The position numbers were made by a program, and so were the translations under genes. From assembly GCA_036845085.1 (NCBI GenBank), contig DAIUEN010000008.1, positions 9,788-19,461 on the forward strand: a stretch of DNA of 9,674 nucleotides, given 5' to 3'. The stretch comes from Candidatus Nanopusillus sp. (GTDB lineage: Archaea > Nanobdellota > Nanobdellia > Nanobdellales > Nanobdellaceae). Of this stretch, positions 2,616 to 9,625 are shown in pieces (positions within the stretch are counted from its first letter, which is position 1; each line of letters begins with the position of its first letter). The notes under the pieces were generated by a model. The model was not told the origin of the DNA and ran no database searches. It saw only the letters and a list, made by a program, of their open reading frames with translations.

Positions 2616-2616
2616 G

Positions 2617-2640
2617 ATTATTTTTTAAATTTTTTGTTTT
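2617..2640 (+). terminator. oligo-T terminator for the 1406..2615 operon; also the T-rich TATA region of gap unit 1
   Basis: T6 (2621-2626), T6 (2630-2635) and T4 (2637-2640) lie immediately after the TAA at 2613-2615. Archaeal RNA polymerase terminates at T-runs. Confidence 0.55.
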
Positions 2641-2664
2641 AATAGAATATTATCATTTAATGAT
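2622..2664 (+). promoter_or_regulatory. gap unit 1: TATA-like box plus 4-5-4 palindrome at the predicted start site
   Basis: 'tttttaaat' is followed, 30 nt after position 2622, by ATCA-TTTAA-TGAT (2652-2664). No ATG occupies the start position. Confidence 0.5.
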
Positions 2665-2865
2665 CTATTCTATATATAATACCAAGTGTATTATAAAGAT
2701 CATCGAATTTCTACTTGGCTTTTATTGATTCTCTATATTTCATTCACATTATATAATGGCCAGCACTAACTGACATATATTAAACATGAAAACTAGGTTA
2801 TAATGCATTTCAAATAAATAATATTAGATGATATTTACCCTTTGCTTATTATCTTTTAAGCTTTT
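2652..2865 (+). ncRNA. candidate small RNA 1 (3' end uncertain: T4 at 2719-2722 or T4/T4 at 2854-2865)
   Basis: Predicted start is by analogy with the leaderless promoters. There is a 5' mini-hairpin and a larger imperfect hairpin at 2660-2703. No convincing ORF. Confidence 0.3.
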
Positions 2866-2895
2866 CATACATATACAATAGTATCCAACAGGGAT
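2853..2895 (+). promoter_or_regulatory. gap unit 2: TATA-like box plus 4-5-4 palindrome
   Basis: 'cttttaag' starts at 2853. Thirty nt later comes ATCC-AACAG-GGAT (2883-2895). The 'acaatag' between box and start resembles units 1 and 3. Confidence 0.45.
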
Positions 2896-2985
2896 TTAAT
2901 CTATAACAAATTGCCTATAATTATTTCTCAAGTGCATCTATTCTATTTGGAGTTGCATCTATATAATATCCTTTTTAAATTTTTT
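2883..2985 (+). ncRNA. candidate small RNA 2 (about 100 nt)
   Basis: Bounded by the unit 2 promoter and the T5/T6 runs at 2972-2985. No ATG anywhere in the interval on the + strand. Confidence 0.35.
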
Positions 2986-3013
2986 GTACAATAAAATATT
3001 ATCCGTCTAGGAT
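2971..3013 (+). promoter_or_regulatory. gap unit 3: TATA-like box plus 4-5-4 palindrome (copy B of the extended promoter module)
   Basis: 'ctttttaaattttttgtacaataaaatatt' is followed by ATCC-GTCTA-GGAT (3001-3013). About 29/33 identity to 2622-2654 by hand alignment with one indel. Confidence 0.5.
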
Positions 3014-3053
3014 TTAAGAATTTAGGATTCTACTTATCTGATTCTATTTTTTT
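3001..3053 (+). ncRNA. candidate small RNA 3 (about 50 nt)
   Basis: Predicted start at 3001 and a T7 run at 3047-3053. The 5' 18 nt (ATCCGTCTAGGATTTAAG) match 13/18 with the start of candidate RNA 2 (ATCCAACAGGGATTTAAT). Confidence 0.35.
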
Positions 3054-3087
3054 ATATACTTTAACATTTAACCAATTTGAACTGTAT

Positions 3088-3160
3088 ATCAATAACTATT
3101 TTTTATCAGTTATCTTAACTTTGGGGGTCAAAGTTCATTATAAATTAGATTTATTTTTTT
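3088..3160 (+). ncRNA. possible fourth small transcript with two hairpins
   Basis: Weak TATA-like 'ctttaaca' from 3059 and 'tatca' at 3087-3091. Stems are ATAACT/AGTTAT (3092-3097 / 3108-3113) and AACTTT/AAAGTT (3117-3122 / 3130-3135, loop GGGGGTC). T7 run at 3154-3160. An internal T6 (3099-3104) argues against it. Confidence 0.15.
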
Positions 3161-3208
3161 ACTTAGTATTAACATAATCAAAAGACTTAAAATATGTTGA
3201 TATACCAC

Positions 3209-3222
3209 AAGACTTATTTAAG
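3209..3222 (+). promoter_or_regulatory. TATA-like promoter of the recombinase gene, leaderless
   Basis: 'aagacttatttaag'. The 'c' at 3213 is 30 nt before the ATG at 3243. A near-duplicate 'aagacttaaaat' lies 27 nt upstream (3183-3194). Confidence 0.55.
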
Positions 3223-3242
3223 TTACTAATGCAATAATATAT

Positions 3243-3800
3243 ATGACAGTTGTATTAGGTAAATGGGATAGAGGCTTAGATTTTCTACAAGCAAGAGTAA
3301 CATTAGAGAATTTAATAAGATCACAAAGTAGTTATTTAACATCGATACTACCATCAACAAATAACAAAATGGGTATGGAATTTATATATTACAGTATAGC
3401 ATATGTACAATTATTAAATGGAGCAAGAATTACAGAAGCTATTGAAGCATTAAAATATTATGTAGATACCGGACAGATAACATTTAAACTAGAAGCAAAG
3501 AAAACAAAAGTACTCAGACCTTTCAAGATACCACCATTAATCCAAGTAAACAAAGTACTCTATAATATATACAAACCCATAATATTAAAAGCAAACAAAA
3601 AGATAGTTGTAGCATTCTTAAAAAATAGATTAGGCTGGAATTCTCATAGTTTAAGATATGCATTTATTAGATATGCAATAGAAAAAGGATATACTGCAGA
3701 ACAACTTGCAATAATTTTAGGTCACAAAAAATTAGATACTACATTAGGTTATGCAAGAAATATAGGTGCAGAAAAAATTTTAGATGATATGCAAGGATAA
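3243..3800 (+). CDS. int: tyrosine-type site-specific recombinase/integrase, catalytic domain only (185 aa)
   Basis: The canonical catalytic set is visible: Arg in LLNGARITEA (R62), HSLR box (H135, R138), LGH (H161) and nucleophile Tyr in TTLGYAR (Y170). Only about 45 aa precede the first catalytic Arg. Confidence 0.9.
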   Translation: MTVVLGKWDRGLDFLQARVTLENLIRSQSSYLTSILPSTNNKMGMEFIYYSIAYVQLLNGARITEAIEALKYYVDTGQITFKLEAKKTKVLRPFKIPPLIQVNKVLYNIYKPIILKANKKIVVAFLKNRLGWNSHSLRYAFIRYAIEKGYTAEQLAIILGHKKLDTTLGYARNIGAEKILDDMQG

Positions 3801-3844: not shown

Positions 3845-4249
3845 ATGACTAAACGAAAAAGGAGATGGTTCAAGAATATTTATTTTGAAACTAAAACTAA
3901 GAAAAGAGACTCTGTTTTTGCTGCGGTTCGAGATATAGGTCGAAAAGGAGTAAATAATGCTAAAGAAGTTGGTGCTTTGGCTTTTGCTCAATTATTAGAT
4001 TATCTTGATAAGAAAACAGCTAATCATTATGGTGAAAAAATAAGATTTACTGATACTCTTTGGAGAAAAAGAACAAGAGTCTTATATTTTTTATCAAATA
4101 AATTTGGTGGAAAATCTTATGTAAAATTAGCTCAAAAATTAAAACAAAGTTATGATTCTGGAAAAATTACAGCTAATGAGATAATAAATAAAATAAAAAA
4201 TATTGTACGGGCTGATAAATTACCTCTAATAAAAATAAAGAAAATATGA
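3845..4249 (+). CDS. hypothetical basic protein (134 aa), possibly nucleic-acid binding
   Basis: ORF track. K/R-rich N-terminus (MTKRKRRWFK) and many K/R throughout. Its TGA overlaps the next ATG (ATGA at 4246-4249), implying translational coupling. Confidence 0.75.
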   Translation: MTKRKRRWFKNIYFETKTKKRDSVFAAVRDIGRKGVNNAKEVGALAFAQLLDYLDKKTANHYGEKIRFTDTLWRKRTRVLYFLSNKFGGKSYVKLAQKLKQSYDSGKITANEIINKIKNIVRADKLPLIKIKKI

Positions 4250-7200
4250 TCATTCCTTTGATTTCAGATCCAACAAAAGTATTAAATGCTGCTAAAGAAG
4301 CTGCTAATAAAATAGCAAGTACTATTGCAACACAAGTATCTAATCTAACTAAAAAAGATTCACCAACAACACCACAAAATATTTCTAATATAGGATACAC
4401 TCGTATGCCAACATCTAGTAATATTTCAATAGGATACACTCCTGCTCCAAATAGAGAAAATCCACCAGTAACTTCTATAAATAATGTTGCAACAAATATT
4501 CCATCTACACCATCTCCTCCTGTAACAAATACTAGAGTTGTAACAAATATTTCACCTACACCAACTCCTCCCGTAACTAATACAGTAACAGCTCCTCCTA
4601 TAACAAATACTAGACCAGATACAGTTAATATACCTGATAGAACAACTTCTATATCTTCTGTAACAAATATTTCATCTACACCATCTCCTTCAATAATAAA
4701 TACTAGTACTAAACCTACTACAGATTATATGGATCTAAATAAATTAGATCAAGAAATATCTAAAAGAGTATGGGATGAATACTTTAGACAACAAAGAGAA
4801 CTTGATGAATGGTATAAAAGTTCTATGAGACAATTAGAAGAACAAGAAAAAGAAATTAATAAATTATATGATACATATAAAAAATCAATTGAAAATTATT
4901 ATCGTGGATTTAAAGAAGAACTAAGAAGGGCTTATATAGATTATCTTTATAGAGAGCGTTATGATCCTATTACTGCTACTAAAAGAATACATCAAATATG
5001 GGCTTTAGATAAAGAAATTATTAAAGATCTAGAAAAACTTGAAAATTGGAGAGCTAGTGCACTATCTGAGATACAAAAAGCCAGGGAACAAATACAAGCT
5101 CAATACAGACTAGGAAGAGAAAGTATTAATCAATGGTTGAACTCTACAACAAGATCTTTAAGAGCTCAATACGAACCATTATTTAAAGCACAAGAATTAA
5201 ATAAAGAACTAACAGACTTATATAAAAAATATCAAGAAGGTTTAATAAGTGATGCTGAATTTATAAAAGAAGTAAAATCTATTATAAATAAAGCTAATAA
5301 ATACGGCCTTGATACATCAGAACTAGACAAAAGTATTGGACTCTATGAATATGTATCCAAAGTAAATCAATCTATCTCTTATTATTTAGATCTATTTAGT
5401 AAGGGACAGATATCTTATCCAGACCTACAAAGAACATTAATAGCATATGAAAGAGAATTTATACAAAAAGGTTTAGATCCATCACCAATAACTAATCTAC
5501 GAACACAAATATATCTATTGCATCATGCCGTAGACTATGATCCTAATACATATACTGTTACATTATATGATCCATCATTAAATATTTTGACAAAAGTGAG
5601 CCTCAACAGAGATTATAGATTTTTACCACAAGAGATTAGAAATTATTTACACGAACAACTACAACGAAAAATACAACAAATACAACCATATTTACCTAAA
5701 GATGCAAAAATTACTGGAATAGATGAATATGGAATGATAAAATATGAAATACCACAAATACCGAATCCATATGAATTAATAGGAGGATATACTTCAAAAC
5801 CATCAACTAAAGATAATCTACAACAATTATATACTCCAATACCACAAGATATGTTATTAAGTATAAAAAGTGGTAATATCACTTATTCAAATAATCAAGA
5901 TCGATTTTTAAATTTTATAAACGCTGCAGATAAAGTTCTAAGTAGTTATTATAATCTTTTTGTTAATTTACCTATACCTTCACCTTTTTATGGTTTTCAT
6001 TCATTTGATCCAATAACAAAACAATTTAAACAAGGCGCAGCAGAGGGTATAAAAGATCTTATTATTTCTATACCTACACTAGGTTATCTAGGATATAAAA
6101 CAACTATAGATCCAAACTTTAGAGGTCAAATTAGAGAATCTCTAAGAAATGCTACACTTTCGGATGCATTTAGTATGATAGTAAGTCCTATCAAAGAAGC
6201 ATTTGAAGTAAGTCCAGCTTATGGAGCTGGTTACTTAGCATCTTATTTTATTCCAATACCAATAAAAGCTCCAAAGATATCTGCAAACATTAAGACTATC
6301 AAAATAAATATACCTGAATCAACAATATTGAACCTTGCTATAAAAGATCCAAATATAATGAAATCTATAAACACAAGAATATCTGTTATACAAAATCTAG
6401 AAAAAGAAATCGAATCTTTAAATAAATTTAAACTTCCTACTATCTTTGGAGAACTTGGTACGGATATTAAACTTACACCTAAAAATTATTTAGAATTATC
6501 AAAAATAACAACACAAGAATTAGTAAAACCTACAACTCGAGAATTATTAGCAATAACATCTAATATAATAAATCCAAAACTTTTAGATCTAGCAATTATA
6601 GGTCCTCCTATTATAAAAAGATACAAAATACCTGAATTTTTAAGTGAGTTGAGTCCTATATTAGGTCCTAAATTACATTTAGAATTACAACTAAATAATG
6701 TTAAAAAAATATTTGCTGCCACACCAATGAGATTTGTATATCATAACAAAGAATTAACATTTTCATATAAACCATATTCAATAATTTCTTTTGCATTAAA
6801 ACCAGAACACGGATTATTTAAAGACAAATATATAATATTTACAAGATCTCTAGAAGACTTTTACAAAACTAAAGCAACTGTTGATTCATTAACAATACCT
6901 CTAAAAAATAAAATATATGTACATTATTTAAATGTAGTTGAAAGAAACAAAAATGCACAAATCAAAAACATAATTCCAGGAAAAGCATATACTATAATTT
7001 TAGAGAAAAAAAGAAATGTATCAAAAGCAATAACATATATAAGACTAAAAAATGGTAGAGAATTACTAAGTTTTGATATAATAAAAGGAAAAAATGCATA
7101 TAGTGTTGCTGTATCTACTAGAGTAACTCCTGAAGGTTTACAAAAATTCGCAGAGATAGTATCAAAATACATATCGCCAAGAAACAGAAGCAAACTTGAT

Positions 7201-7863
7201 TTCTATACTAGAGAAATAAAAAGAATAAGATCAAAACCAATAACAACTTTAGATAAAGATCTCAAAAATCCTCAAATGCAAAAACTTATATCAAGATCAT
7301 CTACACGAGAAGCTCCTATAATATCTCAAGATATAGCATCAAAAGTTCAAAGTACAATAATAGATAAATATAAAAGAGATTTAATTATGCAATTACCACT
7401 TCCATATCAATCACAAAAAAGAAGATATCAAATGTTATTACCAAGAACTAGAGTTATACATTCACAAATATTTAAACCAGAATTAATTATAATACCTAGA
7501 ACCATTGACAAAAAATCATTACTTAAATCAAGACAATTACAATTAATATTACCTAAAGAGAGACAACTAATATTATATCGTGTAAAACCTAGATTATTAC
7601 AACTCCAAAATACTGAAACAAAAGTAGCTACTAAACCTAAAATAATGCTAAAAACAAAACAAAATTTAAGACTAGAATATCCTAAACCAAAATTAAGAAC
7701 TCCACATGTAATAATACCAAGATTCTACTTTGTACCTCTATATATAAAACCAAGATCAAGAAGTTATGCATATTATAAAAAGCCTTATAGTAAATATTCA
7801 GATAAATATAAATTATCTAGAGCAGTATTACGTACAAGATTCTATAAATATAGAAGATATTAA
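4246..7863 (+). CDS. large multidomain protein (1205 aa): Thr/Pro/Ser-rich repeats, coiled coil, long central region, polybasic Tyr-rich tail; candidate virion fibre/adhesin
   Basis: A single uninterrupted ORF in AT-rich DNA, where stop codons are frequent. The domain layout is read directly from the translation. No enzymatic motif recognised. The functional call is inference from architecture and from neighbouring capsid-like/membrane genes. Confidence 0.9.
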   Translation: MIIPLISDPTKVLNAAKEAANKIASTIATQVSNLTKKDSPTTPQNISNIGYTRMPTSSNISIGYTPAPNRENPPVTSINNVATNIPSTPSPPVTNTRVVTNISPTPTPPVTNTVTAPPITNTRPDTVNIPDRTTSISSVTNISSTPSPSIINTSTKPTTDYMDLNKLDQEISKRVWDEYFRQQRELDEWYKSSMRQLEEQEKEINKLYDTYKKSIENYYRGFKEELRRAYIDYLYRERYDPITATKRIHQIWALDKEIIKDLEKLENWRASALSEIQKAREQIQAQYRLGRESINQWLNSTTRSLRAQYEPLFKAQELNKELTDLYKKYQEGLISDAEFIKEVKSIINKANKYGLDTSELDKSIGLYEYVSKVNQSISYYLDLFSKGQISYPDLQRTLIAYEREFIQKGLDPSPITNLRTQIYLLHHAVDYDPNTYTVTLYDPSLNILTKVSLNRDYRFLPQEIRNYLHEQLQRKIQQIQPYLPKDAKITGIDEYGMIKYEIPQIPNPYELIGGYTSKPSTKDNLQQLYTPIPQDMLLSIKSGNITYSNNQDRFLNFINAADKVLSSYYNLFVNLPIPSPFYGFHSFDPITKQFKQGAAEGIKDLIISIPTLGYLGYKTTIDPNFRGQIRESLRNATLSDAFSMIVSPIKEAFEVSPAYGAGYLASYFIPIPIKAPKISANIKTIKINIPESTILNLAIKDPNIMKSINTRISVIQNLEKEIESLNKFKLPTIFGELGTDIKLTPKNYLELSKITTQELVKPTTRELLAITSNIINPKLLDLAIIGPPIIKRYKIPEFLSELSPILGPKLHLELQLNNVKKIFAATPMRFVYHNKELTFSYKPYSIISFALKPEHGLFKDKYIIFTRSLEDFYKTKATVDSLTIPLKNKIYVHYLNVVERNKNAQIKNIIPGKAYTIILEKKRNVSKAITYIRLKNGRELLSFDIIKGKNAYSVAVSTRVTPEGLQKFAEIVSKYISPRNRSKLDFYTREIKRIRSKPITTLDKDLKNPQMQKLISRSSTREAPIISQDIASKVQSTIIDKYKRDLIMQLPLPYQSQKRRYQMLLPRTRVIHSQIFKPELIIIPRTIDKKSLLKSRQLQLILPKERQLILYRVKPRLLQLQNTETKVATKPKIMLKTKQNLRLEYPKPKLRTPHVIIPRFYFVPLYIKPRSRSYAYYKKPYSKYSDKYKLSRAVLRTRFYKYRRY
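4489..4707 (+). repeat. in-frame imperfect repeats encoding (V/A)TNI(P/S)(S/P)TP(S/T)P(P/S)(V/I)(T/I)NT
   Basis: Three copies at 4489-4536, 4537-4587 and 4660-4707, plus a partial 'PPITNTR' at 4594-4614. Copies 1 and 3 are close at the DNA level (acaaatattYcatctacaccatctcct). Confidence 0.85.
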
Positions 7864-7892
7864 AAATTGCTCATTAAGAATACTTTTAAAAT

Positions 7893-7979
7893 AAAAACTA
7901 CGAATATTATTTCTAATTTAAAATTATTTATATCAAAAACTACTAAAAAATCTAAAAAATCAATAAAATAAAAAACTAC
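7893..7979 (+). repeat. three direct copies of AAAAACTAC plus tandem CTAAAAAAT x2 in an A-tract-rich upstream region
   Basis: AAAAACTAC occurs at 7893-7901, 7935-7943 and 7971-7979. CTAAAAAAT occurs at 7943-7951 and 7952-7960. Confidence 0.6.
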
Positions 7980-8016
7980 AATAATAAATAAAAAAAATCA
8001 CAAAATTCAAAAAAAG

Positions 8017-8030
8017 CAAAGATTAATATT
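8017..8030 (+). promoter_or_regulatory. TATA-like promoter of the 4-TM capsid-like gene
   Basis: In 'aaagattaatatt', 'ttaatatt' starts at 8023, 30 nt before the ATG at 8053. The 'aaagatt' prefix is shared with the 8612 promoter. Confidence 0.5.
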
Positions 8031-8052
8031 TGAGTTCACAAAAAAATATAGT

Positions 8053-8589
8053 ATGGCCAACGACATTAACGCAATAATTAGAACAGCAATAAGTATAGGA
8101 ATAGCAATAGTATTATTTGCAGTAATATTAATGCAATTTGCAATACCTGTAATGCTTAGCCAATTAGATGCATTAAATACCCTTATTAGTCAAAATCAGA
8201 ATTTACAATCAGTATCAACAGCAATAGATACAACTCGATTACTAGTAAGAGATTTATTACCAATATTGATATTATTCGCAGTAACAATATTACCTCCAGT
8301 AGCTTTATTTATAAAAACAAGATCTTTTGGAACTGAAAACTTTGCAAACAAACTCGTAGCTACTACAATTGGAGTTTCTATAGCATTATTTGTAATTGCT
8401 ATACTATACATGGGAATGGCTCTACCAATATTATTCCAAAGCAACCTTTCATCTACAGTATTAAGCTTAGCAGTATATGGTTCTCTATTATTAGTATTAG
8501 CTACAGCCTTAATACCATCAGGATTATTAACATTCTCTGAACTAAAGAATTATGAAAGAAGGAGACAGCCTCCAATTAGGCTAATCTAG
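8053..8589 (+). CDS. four-TM hydrophobic protein (178 aa); candidate tandem-fused spindle-virus (VP1-like) major capsid protein
   Basis: There are four about 25-aa hydrophobic helices arranged as two hairpins. Helix 1 and helix 3 align (NAIIRTAISIGIAIVLFAVILMQFAIPVML vs NKLVATTIGVSIALFVIAILYMGMALPILF). Hairpin 1 resembles the fusellovirus VP1 pattern as I recall it. Confidence 0.85.
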   Translation: MANDINAIIRTAISIGIAIVLFAVILMQFAIPVMLSQLDALNTLISQNQNLQSVSTAIDTTRLLVRDLLPILILFAVTILPPVALFIKTRSFGTENFANKLVATTIGVSIALFVIAILYMGMALPILFQSNLSSTVLSLAVYGSLLLVLATALIPSGLLTFSELKNYERRRQPPIRLI

Positions 8590-8590
8590 C

Positions 8591-8609
8591 TTTTTCTTAT
8601 TTTTTGTTT
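8591..8609 (+). terminator. oligo-T terminator
   Basis: T5 (8591-8595), T6 (8600-8605) and T3 (8607-8609) lie directly after the TAG at 8587-8589. Confidence 0.55.
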
Positions 8610-8611
8610 AT

Positions 8612-8627
8612 AAAGATTTATTTATTT
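8612..8627 (+). promoter_or_regulatory. TATA-like promoter of the 8649..9625 operon
   Basis: In 'aaagatttatttattt', the T/A box begins about 30 nt before the ATG at 8649. Confidence 0.5.
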
Positions 8628-8648
8628 TATATATAATATATAAATTAT

Positions 8649-8912
8649 ATGAAAAATGAATCATACCAAATCCTAAAAAAGATTATGGATAAACTTAAAC
8701 AACAACGTATCTACCCTAAAGTTGTAATCACATTTCACAACCACAAAAAAATTATAGGTTATATCCTAGATGTAAAACATAATCAAATTTATCTTTTGAA
8801 GGAGGATAATGGACACCTTTATGTGATTTCATATACACAAGTAAAAGAATTAATATTTGAAGATACTAAACTAATACAAAAAATTTATAATGATTTAGAG
8901 AATAATAAATAA
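8649..8912 (+). CDS. small soluble protein (87 aa), possible Sm/Hfq-like or SH3-like beta-barrel
   Basis: An N-terminal helix (SYQILKKIMDKLKQQ) is followed by a strand pattern, VVITFHNHKKIIGYILDVKHNQIYLLKE...HLYVISYTQVKELIF. This parallels the Hfq/Sm1-Sm2 layout, with a conserved Gly after strand 2. Pattern-level evidence only. Confidence 0.75.
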   Translation: MKNESYQILKKIMDKLKQQRIYPKVVITFHNHKKIIGYILDVKHNQIYLLKEDNGHLYVISYTQVKELIFEDTKLIQKIYNDLENNK

Positions 8913-8913
8913 T

Positions 8914-9315
8914 ATGTTATCTGCACTTTATTATGCTGTAACCTTTGGAGCAGGATTATTTTTTATAATTTTGTTATATTCAATATTTTCTCCAATAATC
9001 CCTTATTCTCTTTTTGAACTTTTTATAATAATTGGAGGTTGGGTAGCTGTAATACTATATTGTTATCTTACTGCAAAGAAAATATCATTAGTAGATATTA
9101 TAATAGTATTTGTAGTAATATTTGTTATAAAATTTATTTATGATTTTGTATTTGTTCCATTATGGTTAGCAACACATCAATTTGACCAAAATACTGTGAG
9201 TTTATTAAGAAGTGCAATATTAACATTACTCATGGTATTAATGATAGCTGTAATGGCTAAGCCTGAAATGGAATCTCAAACTTTATATTATCAAGAAGTT
9301 ACAAAAATAAAATAA
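8914..9315 (+). CDS. polytopic membrane protein (133 aa, about 4 TM)
   Basis: ORF track. Four long hydrophobic segments. 1-nt spacer from the upstream stop. Confidence 0.8.
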   Translation: MLSALYYAVTFGAGLFFIILLYSIFSPIIPYSLFELFIIIGGWVAVILYCYLTAKKISLVDIIIVFVVIFVIKFIYDFVFVPLWLATHQFDQNTVSLLRSAILTLLMVLMIAVMAKPEMESQTLYYQEVTKIK

Positions 9316-9316
9316 A

Positions 9317-9625
9317 ATGGCAAATCCAGTATCTTGTGTTATTACAAACTTGAATGATTTTTTGATTTTGATTATATTATTAATGATTCCATTACTAATG
9401 CTAATTCCCGAGAGATTATCAAAAAATTTAGTATACATATCAATAACATTATTTGTTGGAGGTTTAATAATAGTTTGGTTAACTGCAACAATAGTTAGTA
9501 CTGCATATGTTTCAGAAGCATGTCCAACTAATTTCGATAAAGCTTTATTAATGGGATATTACGTAGTATTTTCTGTATTTGCAATATATAAATTATTTAA
9601 GATGTTTATGGAATATCTAAAATAA
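9317..9625 (+). CDS. polytopic membrane protein (102 aa, about 3 TM)
   Basis: ORF track. Three hydrophobic segments. 1-nt spacer from the upstream stop. Confidence 0.8.
   Translation: MANPVSCVITNLNDFLILIILLMIPLLMLIPERLSKNLVYISITLFVGGLIIVWLTATIVSTAYVSEACPTNFDKALLMGYYVVFSVFAIYKLFKMFMEYLK

Follow-up and report, generated by a model that had tools for sequence, protein, structure and literature searches.

Does the small, very hydrophobic protein encoded at positions 8053-8589 of a 9,674-nucleotide (nt) stretch of nanoarchaeal DNA (the window, meaning the whole stretch analysed here) build the shell of a virus-like particle? The first-pass annotation had seen in this product of 178 amino acids (aa) two major-capsid units of spindle-shaped archaeal viruses, joined in one polypeptide. 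Hairpin capsid proteins are notoriously difficult to detect by sequence, and viruses of Nanoarchaeota are, to our knowledge, almost unknown. The protein was found to be an ORFan with four predicted helices, the first and third of which resemble each other as duplicates, and with a hotspot of strain variation at the tip of its first hairpin. By analogy with spindle-virus capsid proteins, it may tentatively be read as a tandem-hairpin structural shell subunit of the element's particle.

The gene and its four-helix product

The open reading frame (ORF) at 8053-8589 (+ strand) is a real gene. It is uninterrupted in four independent contigs, which are the window, L001 from ENA, and L018 and L022 from JGI, and it remains open despite 25 nucleotide differences. 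Outside the hotspot described below, it differs from L001 by four synonymous and two non-synonymous changes, and the ORF antisense to it is much shorter, reaching only 82 aa. The 189-nt spacer 5' of the ORF (7864-8052, + strand) contains a TATA-like TTAATATT at 8023-8030, ~27 nt 5' of the ATG, while a T-rich stretch directly 3' of the stop codon (8590-8615, + strand) is a candidate archaeal oligo-T terminator. Read with the established rule of archaeal promoter spacing, these elements suggest that the gene forms a putative transcription unit of its own, with its own promoter and a leaderless mRNA.

Among 5.8 billion clustered proteins and 1.84 billion cluster representatives, the only relatives of the protein were copies at least 93% identical to it, and searches of a phage and archaeal-virus collection, at both DNA and protein level, gave no match to the window or to the protein. 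The protein is an ORFan. Cellular homologues in non-viral contexts, which the first-pass annotation had named as an outcome that would speak against a capsid, were likewise absent from these searches of billions of proteins.

The protein has a grand average of hydropathy (GRAVY) of +1.0 and an isoelectric point (pI) of 10.0. Kyte-Doolittle analysis places four hydrophobic segments at residues about 11-36, 66-88, 100-128 and 134-160. In the AlphaFold2 model of the full-length protein, helices span residues 2-46, 51-91, 94-127 and 134-171 at low confidence (predicted local distance difference test, pLDDT, of 58). Residues 1-93 modelled alone form a long hairpin of helices 2-46 and 51-91 with a pLDDT of 72. 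From hydropathy, alignment and these models, the following segments can be placed along the gene, all on the + strand: the hydrophobic core of helix 1 (residues 11-36, 8083-8160), which ends in FAIPVML; a hypervariable patch (codons 35-66, 8155-8249) that occurs as two alleles and forms the polar tip of hairpin 1; the core of helix 2 (residues 66-88, 8248-8316; LLPILILFAVTILPPVALFIK); a basic linker between the hairpins (residues 89-100, 8317-8352; TRSFGTENFANK); the core of helix 3 (residues 101-128, 8353-8436); the core of helix 4 (residues 134-160, 8452-8532); and a basic C-terminal tail (8533-8586; FSELKNYERRRQPPIRLI). Counted from the translation within the limits set by hydropathy, nine Lys and Arg residues lie on the N-terminus, linker and C-terminal tail versus two on the two loops. 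By the positive-inside rule, this suggests that the termini of the protein face inward, as would the linker and the tail, and that both hairpin tips lie outside. A type IV pilin-like signal peptide was not seen, given that no [KR][GA] cleavage motif was found as judged by eye only.

That helices 1 and 3 align position by position, with both ending in A-(I/L)-P-(V/I)-(M/L), had been noticed in the first reading of the sequence, and this alignment withstands calibration. The two helices (...FAIPVML versus ...MALPILF) align with a Smith-Waterman score of 65, which corresponds to z = 4.2 and p about 0.001 against segment-preserving shuffles, and which exceeds every decoy: the maximum was 49 in 296 natural hydrophobic stretches, taken out of ORFs in related nanoarchaeal genome regions, and 52 in 10,230 locally shuffled versions. 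Comparison of the two helices by hhalign gives P = 8e-4. Between helix 2 and helix 4 there is no similarity (p about 0.3-0.4 by Smith-Waterman with decoys). The first predicted helix of each hairpin is thus duplicated; given that helices 2 and 4 are unlike each other, the duplication is demonstrated for the first helices and not for entire hairpins. The idea of two capsid-like hairpins in one ORF is therefore retained as regards the four predicted helices and the duplicate helices 1 and 3, and is not retained as a duplication of the full hairpin. BLASTP between the two halves of the protein found nothing, probably due to filtering, and Smith-Waterman alignment with decoys was needed.

Variation at the tip of hairpin 1

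Across the 9,674 positions there are 52 differences between the window and L001, and 19 of these fall within the 95 nt of 8155-8249 (hypergeometric P = 6e-26), which makes this patch a 40-fold hotspot. Of the codons altered in it, 11 are changed non-synonymously and two synonymously, and several carry two or three base changes. The five known copies of the gene carry two tip alleles. The allele LSQLDALNTLISQNQ...DTTRLLVRD is found in the window, in L018 and in the NCBI copy, while INQLE(A/E)LNNLIGNVE...STTKLLVKD is found in L001 and L022. Given that L022 joins the background of L018 with an L001-type tip, the tip alleles recombine between backgrounds. This hotspot is a new observation of the present analysis. 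It would mark an exposed surface under diversifying or balancing selection, and this would hold in hot-spring populations whatever the function of the protein.

The loop is also the most variable part of the fusellovirus proteins VP1 and VP3, as seen in an alignment of 23 of these proteins (alignment A1), and in SSV19 VP1 it makes up the capsid's outer face (PMC9351363). A loop exposed at a cell surface would be equally expected to vary in the same manner.

Comparison with capsid proteins of spindle-shaped viruses

The strings of SSV1 VP1 from which the capsid proposal had been built are correct, as was checked by translating NC_001338. The Pro-x10-Pro spacing that had been taken as a mark of capsid likeness was rejected as a signature, given that it is present in 21 of 185 natural two-helix decoys (11%) and is thus too common. 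Profile similarity to spindle-virus capsid families, the absence of which had been named in advance as counting against the proposal, was not found at the standard thresholds of Pfam, PHROGs and hhalign. The Pfam families PF06281 (VP1_VP3) and PF25665 (His1_capsid) remained unmatched at E <= 1 for the whole protein and at E <= 10 for each half, with SSV1 VP1 as positive control scoring 73 bits on PF06281 and reaching E = 0.018 on PF25665. The same was observed for the PHROGs capsid families phrog_11172, phrog_5402 and phrog_28873, for which SSV1 VP1 and the SMV1 capsid protein served as positive controls and matched capsid families, the latter matching phrog_28873 at 6e-55. A sequence search of the PDB returned nothing for the protein, though that database includes SSV19 VP1 (7XDI) and the SMV1 capsid protein (7RO2), and Foldseek searches with both models gave only generic helical hairpins and did not retrieve 7XDI. 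With alignment A1, which was used both for hhalign and as HMMER profile, hhalign gave a probability of 5-11% for hairpin 1 and nothing for hairpin 2. It placed helix 2 on the conserved C-terminal helix of VP1/VP3 with P = 0.003-0.007, which is not significant after calibration.

A weak signal was obtained with HMMER --max and the A1 profile. Hairpin 1 ranks first among 193 natural hairpins, with 13.5 bits versus 6.8 for the runner-up (20.1 versus 13.4 bits without composition correction), a score that falls below the Pfam cut-off of 25 bits for PF06281. The alignment is colinear across profile positions 1-80, and the score of 13.5 bits is attained by only 0.3% of 3,000 segment-preserving shuffles (p = 0.003). 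Hairpin 2 gave no signal with this profile. In pairwise Smith-Waterman comparison, SSV1 VP1 ranks hairpin 1 first of 192 hairpins (66 versus 50, z = 5.9), with p about 0.01 for the score of 66 against segment-preserving shuffles. His1 VP21 ranks it second of 192 (z = 2.8), and the SMV1 capsid protein shows no similarity to it (rank 42-49 of 192, z about 0.1). All p-values of the VP1 comparison are optimistic because this comparison was picked after the resemblance had been seen, and for this reason the resemblance is treated as suggestive, not as homology.

The resemblance of hairpin 1 to VP1/VP3 is thus borderline, sub-threshold and suggestive, and homology to fusellovirus VP1/VP3 is not established by these comparisons. 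The profile matches that define the VP1/VP3, His1 VP21 and SMV1 capsid families were tested and not obtained, so that membership of the protein in any of them is not demonstrable on present sequence comparisons. What stands of the capsid identity proposed earlier is the sub-threshold, order-dependent HMMER signal; a standard profile or fold match does not stand beside it. The predicted model of residues 1-93 (pLDDT 72) has the corresponding fold, with two hydrophobic alpha-helices, the termini on one side and the loop on the other, in agreement with hydropathy and the distribution of charge.

The island that carries the gene

The G+C content of the window is low (21-29%) and the host is a Nanopusillaceae nanoarchaeon, in agreement with the low-G+C archaeon that had been predicted. 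In L001 the gene set of the window lies inside a chromosome, followed to the right by genes for a secreted staphylococcal nuclease (SNase)-like nuclease, tRNA-Ser(CGA), a class-I tRNA synthetase (Pfam tRNA-synt_1b, labelled TrpRS), TruD, translin, Rpr2 and ribosomal proteins. This enzyme shares 76% identity with its counterparts in Nanopusillus acidilobi and Nanobsidianus stetteri, and the gene order to its right is conserved in 10-15 Nanopusillaceae and Nanoarchaeota genomes. In all of these genomes tRNA-Ser(CGA) lies directly 5' of the synthetase, and in most of them tRNA-Ala(CGC) follows about 7.9 kb beyond. The genes of L001 to the left of the tRNA, which are the nuclease, a DUF2341 protein and the genes of the window, have no counterpart in the flanks of the relatives, and the island is missing from at least 10 related genomes with the same tRNA-Ser/TrpRS synteny. 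Because the relatives resemble L001 only as far as the 3' end of tRNA-Ser(CGA) and nothing to the left of it matches, the window belongs to a foreign island, at least 12.2 kb long, beside this tRNA. This length is a lower bound, given that the left end of the island lies past every contig reached and that a scan of metagenomes found one 1.2-kb contig only. At its right end (L001 10765-12334, to the right of the window), the island finishes with a 294-aa DUF2341 protein and a 168-aa staphylococcal-nuclease homologue, both secreted-looking, whose genes abut the 3' end of tRNA-Ser(CGA); the relatives differ to the left of this tRNA.

All genes of the island are ORFans with the exception of the integrase and the two secreted proteins, and in searches of 15 island proteins against Pfam, PHROGs and NCBIfam there was no fusellovirus family match save that of the integrase. 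Scans of the window for tRNAs and Rfam families found nothing. The genes are arranged in the order integrase, 134-aa very basic protein, 1205-aa ORFan, 178-aa protein, 87-aa protein and two multi-helix hydrophobic proteins, an order that is loosely reminiscent of the structural modules of SMV1 and His1. The island is probably virus-derived.

The integrase is a tyrosine recombinase of 185 aa that consists of the catalytic domain only (3243-3800, + strand; phrog_9208, E = 4e-30), and it is the sole gene of the window with a family assignment. The expectation of a virus-type recombinase near the 178-aa gene was borne out, given that its best matches are integrases of Bicaudaviridae (33-38% identity to STSV1, ATV, SMV1 and other members). 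The catalytic Arg, His-x-x-Arg, His and Tyr are present in the translation (NGARITEA, HSLRYA, GH and LGY), with their roles assigned from the alignment with SMV1 gp34. The alignment to the SMV1 integrase covers residues 76-237 only, so that the first ~75 residues of the 242-aa proteins are missing, and a stop codon lies eight codons 5' of the recombinase ORF. Neither an N-terminal integrase fragment nor a tRNA-Ser-derived att repeat was found in the window or in L001. A split integrase of the SSV type with att repeats was considered and rejected, as there is no tRNA-Ser repeat, no N-terminal fragment and no G+C-rich tRNA piece 5' of 3243.

Directly 3' of the integrase gene lies that of a very basic 134-aa ORFan (3845-4249, + strand; pI 10.5, no family match), which shares 4 nt with the start of the 1205-aa gene and whose product is a possible DNA-binding or nucleoprotein component. 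The 1205-aa ORFan (4246-7863, + strand) is encoded directly 5' of the 178-aa gene; its N-terminus is rich in T, P, S and N, its middle part is helical and its C-terminus is very basic. In protein searches it is as isolated as the 178-aa protein, with near-identical copies only. Within its gene, positions 4488-4706 hold imperfect ~51-nt repeats that encode a Thr/Pro/Ser/Asn-rich peptide (..NI(S/P)STPSPPVTNT..), and several strain differences lie in or just beside them. N-glycosylation of this N-terminus was considered and rejected, since N-x-S/T sequons are not enriched beyond composition (p = 0.36), and no glycoprotein is claimed. Downstream of the 178-aa gene (8649-9625, + strand) are ORFs of 87 aa (soluble) and of 133 and 102 aa (multi-helix hydrophobic). 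The large protein and the small membrane proteins that had been reported near the gene are therefore present, as the 1205-aa ORFan and several small hydrophobic ORFs of the island.

A possible tandem-hairpin shell protein or another membrane protein

On the shell reading, which is the one favoured here at low confidence, the 178-aa protein would work like the hydrophobic alpha-hairpin capsid proteins of spindle viruses, as a covalent pair. The hydrophobic cores of its hairpins would lie against each other and form a protein 'membrane', with the basic linker and the C-terminal tail pointing to a DNA-filled interior and the long polar tip of hairpin 1 projecting outward as the strain-variable surface. 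This is a claim about the mode of working and not about family membership; the provirus nature of the island, the location of the protein in a virion and its formation of a shell are what we infer. The long helices predicted for hairpin 1 (2-46 and 51-91) speak in favour of it. SSV19 VP1 is a curved hydrophobic hairpin with its termini inward and its loop outward (PMC9351363), and in SMV1, ATV and SSV19 the hairpin strands form a protein 'membrane' with the hydrophilic ends toward the lumen and the exterior (PMC10589707; PMC9351363). Given the distribution of Lys and Arg, both hairpins of the 178-aa protein would share the topology of VP1, and such a lattice would accommodate two linked hairpins of like orientation. 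Some spindle viruses are known to have a pair of paralogous capsid proteins (bioRxiv 10.1101/2025.02.15.638363), so that the fusion of two hairpins would be a small step. Further points in favour of this reading are the tip hotspot, the first rank of hairpin 1 in the comparisons with the VP1/VP3 profile and with SSV1 VP1, and the apparent transcription unit of the gene, which comes directly after the 1205-aa ORFan and before small membrane proteins, much as the gene of His1 VP21 lies between intergenic gaps. The absence of the island from at least 10 relatives and the viral affinity of its integrase also count for it. In the literature searched, neither this island nor a fused hairpin capsid protein was described; if the protein works like spindle-virus capsids, it is a novel form within a known type.

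Several results weigh against this reading. No standard profile or fold method ties the protein to any capsid family, and the hhalign score of hairpin 1 is equalled by its reversed sequence and by 6% of segment shuffles. Of the eight residues invariant in the VP1/VP3 family (G18, L21, L50, P52, Y55, V58, V65 and A67 of mature SSV1 VP1), only four are matched in the HMMER alignment (L21, L50, P52 and V65), the others being replaced (G18 by A, Y55 by I, V58 by A and A67 by L). The VP1 comparison was, as said, selected after the fact. Helix 4 is no copy of helix 2, hairpin 2 carries no capsid-like signal, and the pLDDT of the full-length model is just 58. In the 12.2 kb available there is neither an AAA+ ATPase nor a replication gene, and core genes of fuselloviruses or bicaudaviruses are likewise absent, with the left end of the island lying beyond those contigs. 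Scans of the IMG/VR viral contigs with the 178-aa and 1205-aa proteins did not find the element. Other small hydrophobic ORFs of the island (55, 102 and 133 aa) are also candidates. Finally, because the N-terminal part of the integrase is missing and att repeats were not found, the island could be what is left of a decayed element, or it could be no virus at all. Sub-threshold similarity and analogy are what the central capsid claim is built on.

About equally likely as the shell subunit is a non-capsid membrane protein of the mobile element, located in the membrane of the nanoarchaeal cell with its first, variable loop on the cell surface, where it might act in superinfection exclusion, receptor masking, particle release or altered contact with the crenarchaeal host. 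In favour of it, the four hydrophobic segments have the length usual for transmembrane helices and follow a clean positive-inside pattern, a strain-variable outward loop is just as expected of such a protein, and significant capsid homology is lacking; fuselloviruses, His1 and SMV1 are each annotated with several small membrane proteins that are not capsid proteins. It is less at ease with the sub-threshold, order-dependent likeness of hairpin 1 to VP1/VP3, with predicted helices of 41-45 residues, which exceed what a bilayer needs, and with the apparent transcription unit of its own beside the largest gene.

It is unlikely that the product is simply a membrane protein of the cell, ordinary and strain-specific, from a variable island of Nanopusillaceae, with the integrase as a relic and the loop under selection at the symbiont surface. 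The truncated integrase without att sites, the lack of any viral hallmark gene, the absence of the island from IMG/VR, its cargo of secreted SNase and DUF2341 proteins, and the near identity of the four, apparently chromosomal, contigs would all agree with a cellular island. Against this, its genes other than the integrase and the two secreted proteins are ORFans absent from the synteny-matched regions of at least 10 relatives, the sole family-level link is to viral integrases, and insertion beside the 3' end of a tRNA is typical of mobile elements.

It is also quite improbable that the protein is a polyprotein whose linker is cleaved near Glu95 to release two hairpins, one a major capsid protein like VP1 and the other a minor one like VP3. 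SSV1 encodes VP1 and VP3 side by side, and its VP1 matures by a cut before the conserved Glu that follows KLTKG, that is, KLTKG|E66 (PMC5748691), to which the linker KTRSFG-T-E95 (8317-8340, residues 89-96) can be compared. This likeness is that of a short motif and a faint lead, hairpin 2 lacks a VP1/VP3 signal, no protease is known or encoded nearby, and the proposal presupposes the capsid reading. A chance ORF in AT-rich DNA, for which the lack of homologues beyond near-identical copies could be quoted, is scarcely credible for 178 codons open at about 25% G+C, where stop codons are frequent, and intact in four contigs despite the 25 differences, with an internal repeat, a coherent four-helix pattern and an antisense ORF of only 82 aa.

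Nearest known systems and significance

Among the closest known counterparts are VP1/VP3 of Fuselloviridae (PF06281; SSV19 VP1, PDB 7XDI). Shared features are the hairpin of two hydrophobic helices, a proline close to where helix 1 ends, with S-Q-hydrophobic after it (LLPVIVSQV in VP1, AIPVMLSQL here), two prolines 11 residues apart in helix 2 with a basic C-terminal end, and a variable loop, which in VP1 faces outward. Unlike these proteins, the 178-aa protein has two hairpins in a single chain, lacks an N-terminal propeptide or extension before helix 1, and has a polar tip of about 29 residues versus about 9 in SSV19 VP1. Four of the eight invariant residues and any significant profile or fold match are missing, fusellovirus core genes (VP4 end-filament, DnaA-like protein and others) are absent nearby, and the host is a nanoarchaeon and not a member of the Sulfolobales.

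With the capsid protein of Bicaudaviridae (SMV1 gp03, PDB 7RO2), it shares a very hydrophobic helical nature and an element whose integrase is nearest to those of bicaudaviruses; it differs in having no sequence similarity, no match to phrog_28873 and no equivalent of the 66-residue basic N-terminal extension of gp03. His1 VP21 (Halspiviridae, PF25665) is also a two-helix hairpin, and its gene is set off by intergenic gaps on both sides and precedes genes for small membrane proteins. VP21 is, however, a single hairpin of 73 aa with no Pfam match here, and the genome of His1 is linear with a protein-primed polymerase, a gene not seen in the island. Compared by description, the Wyrdviridae of Asgard archaea and DNSV-1/2 of Nanohaloarchaeota also use two related hairpin units together, but as separate genes accompanied by an AAA+ ATPase, whereas here there is one polypeptide and no ATPase was seen in the 12.2 kb. 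DNSVs infect DPANN archaea and carry a tyrosine integrase (bioRxiv 10.1101/2025.02.15.638363).

Should the protein build a particle, no fused (tandem) hairpin capsid subunit would have come before it, and its gene would serve as a marker in the search for viruses of DPANN symbionts. The bicaudavirus-like integrase would connect nanoarchaeal mobile elements with viruses of Sulfolobales, an order that includes hosts of nanoarchaea. In its most far-reaching form, this reading would have the gene specify the capsid of a spindle-type virus lineage, the first recognisable one in hot-spring Nanoarchaeota, with its product a covalently duplicated hairpin very distantly related to VP1/VP3 and its tip a pair of recombining surface variants. 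This is rather unlikely; if true, it would parallel, for hairpins, the transition from single to double jelly-roll capsids, and the integrase common to Sulfolobales viruses would point to gene flow between the viruses of symbiont and host.

Other observations in the window

An ORF of 55 aa at 40-207, missed by the gene callers, encodes a short two-helix hydrophobic hairpin. It differs from L001 at five of 168 nt (three synonymous, two not), about six times the average of the window, and its product is another candidate small structural or membrane protein.

L018 and L022 both begin at window position 337 and end within 60 nt of each other (about 9859-9917) in the DUF2341 gene, which suggests that strain-variable or repeated sequence breaks the assemblies near these two places.

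A 34-nt A/T-rich motif (TTTTAAATTTTTT....AATA.AA.ATTAT) is present in three copies, at 1374-1407, 2620-2653 and 2969-3002. One copy lies just 5' of ORF 1406, and two lie inside a gene-free gap of 627 nt (2616-3242), which is 100% identical among the window, L001 and L018. The copies may be promoters of unannotated transcripts, or part of an origin or regulatory region.

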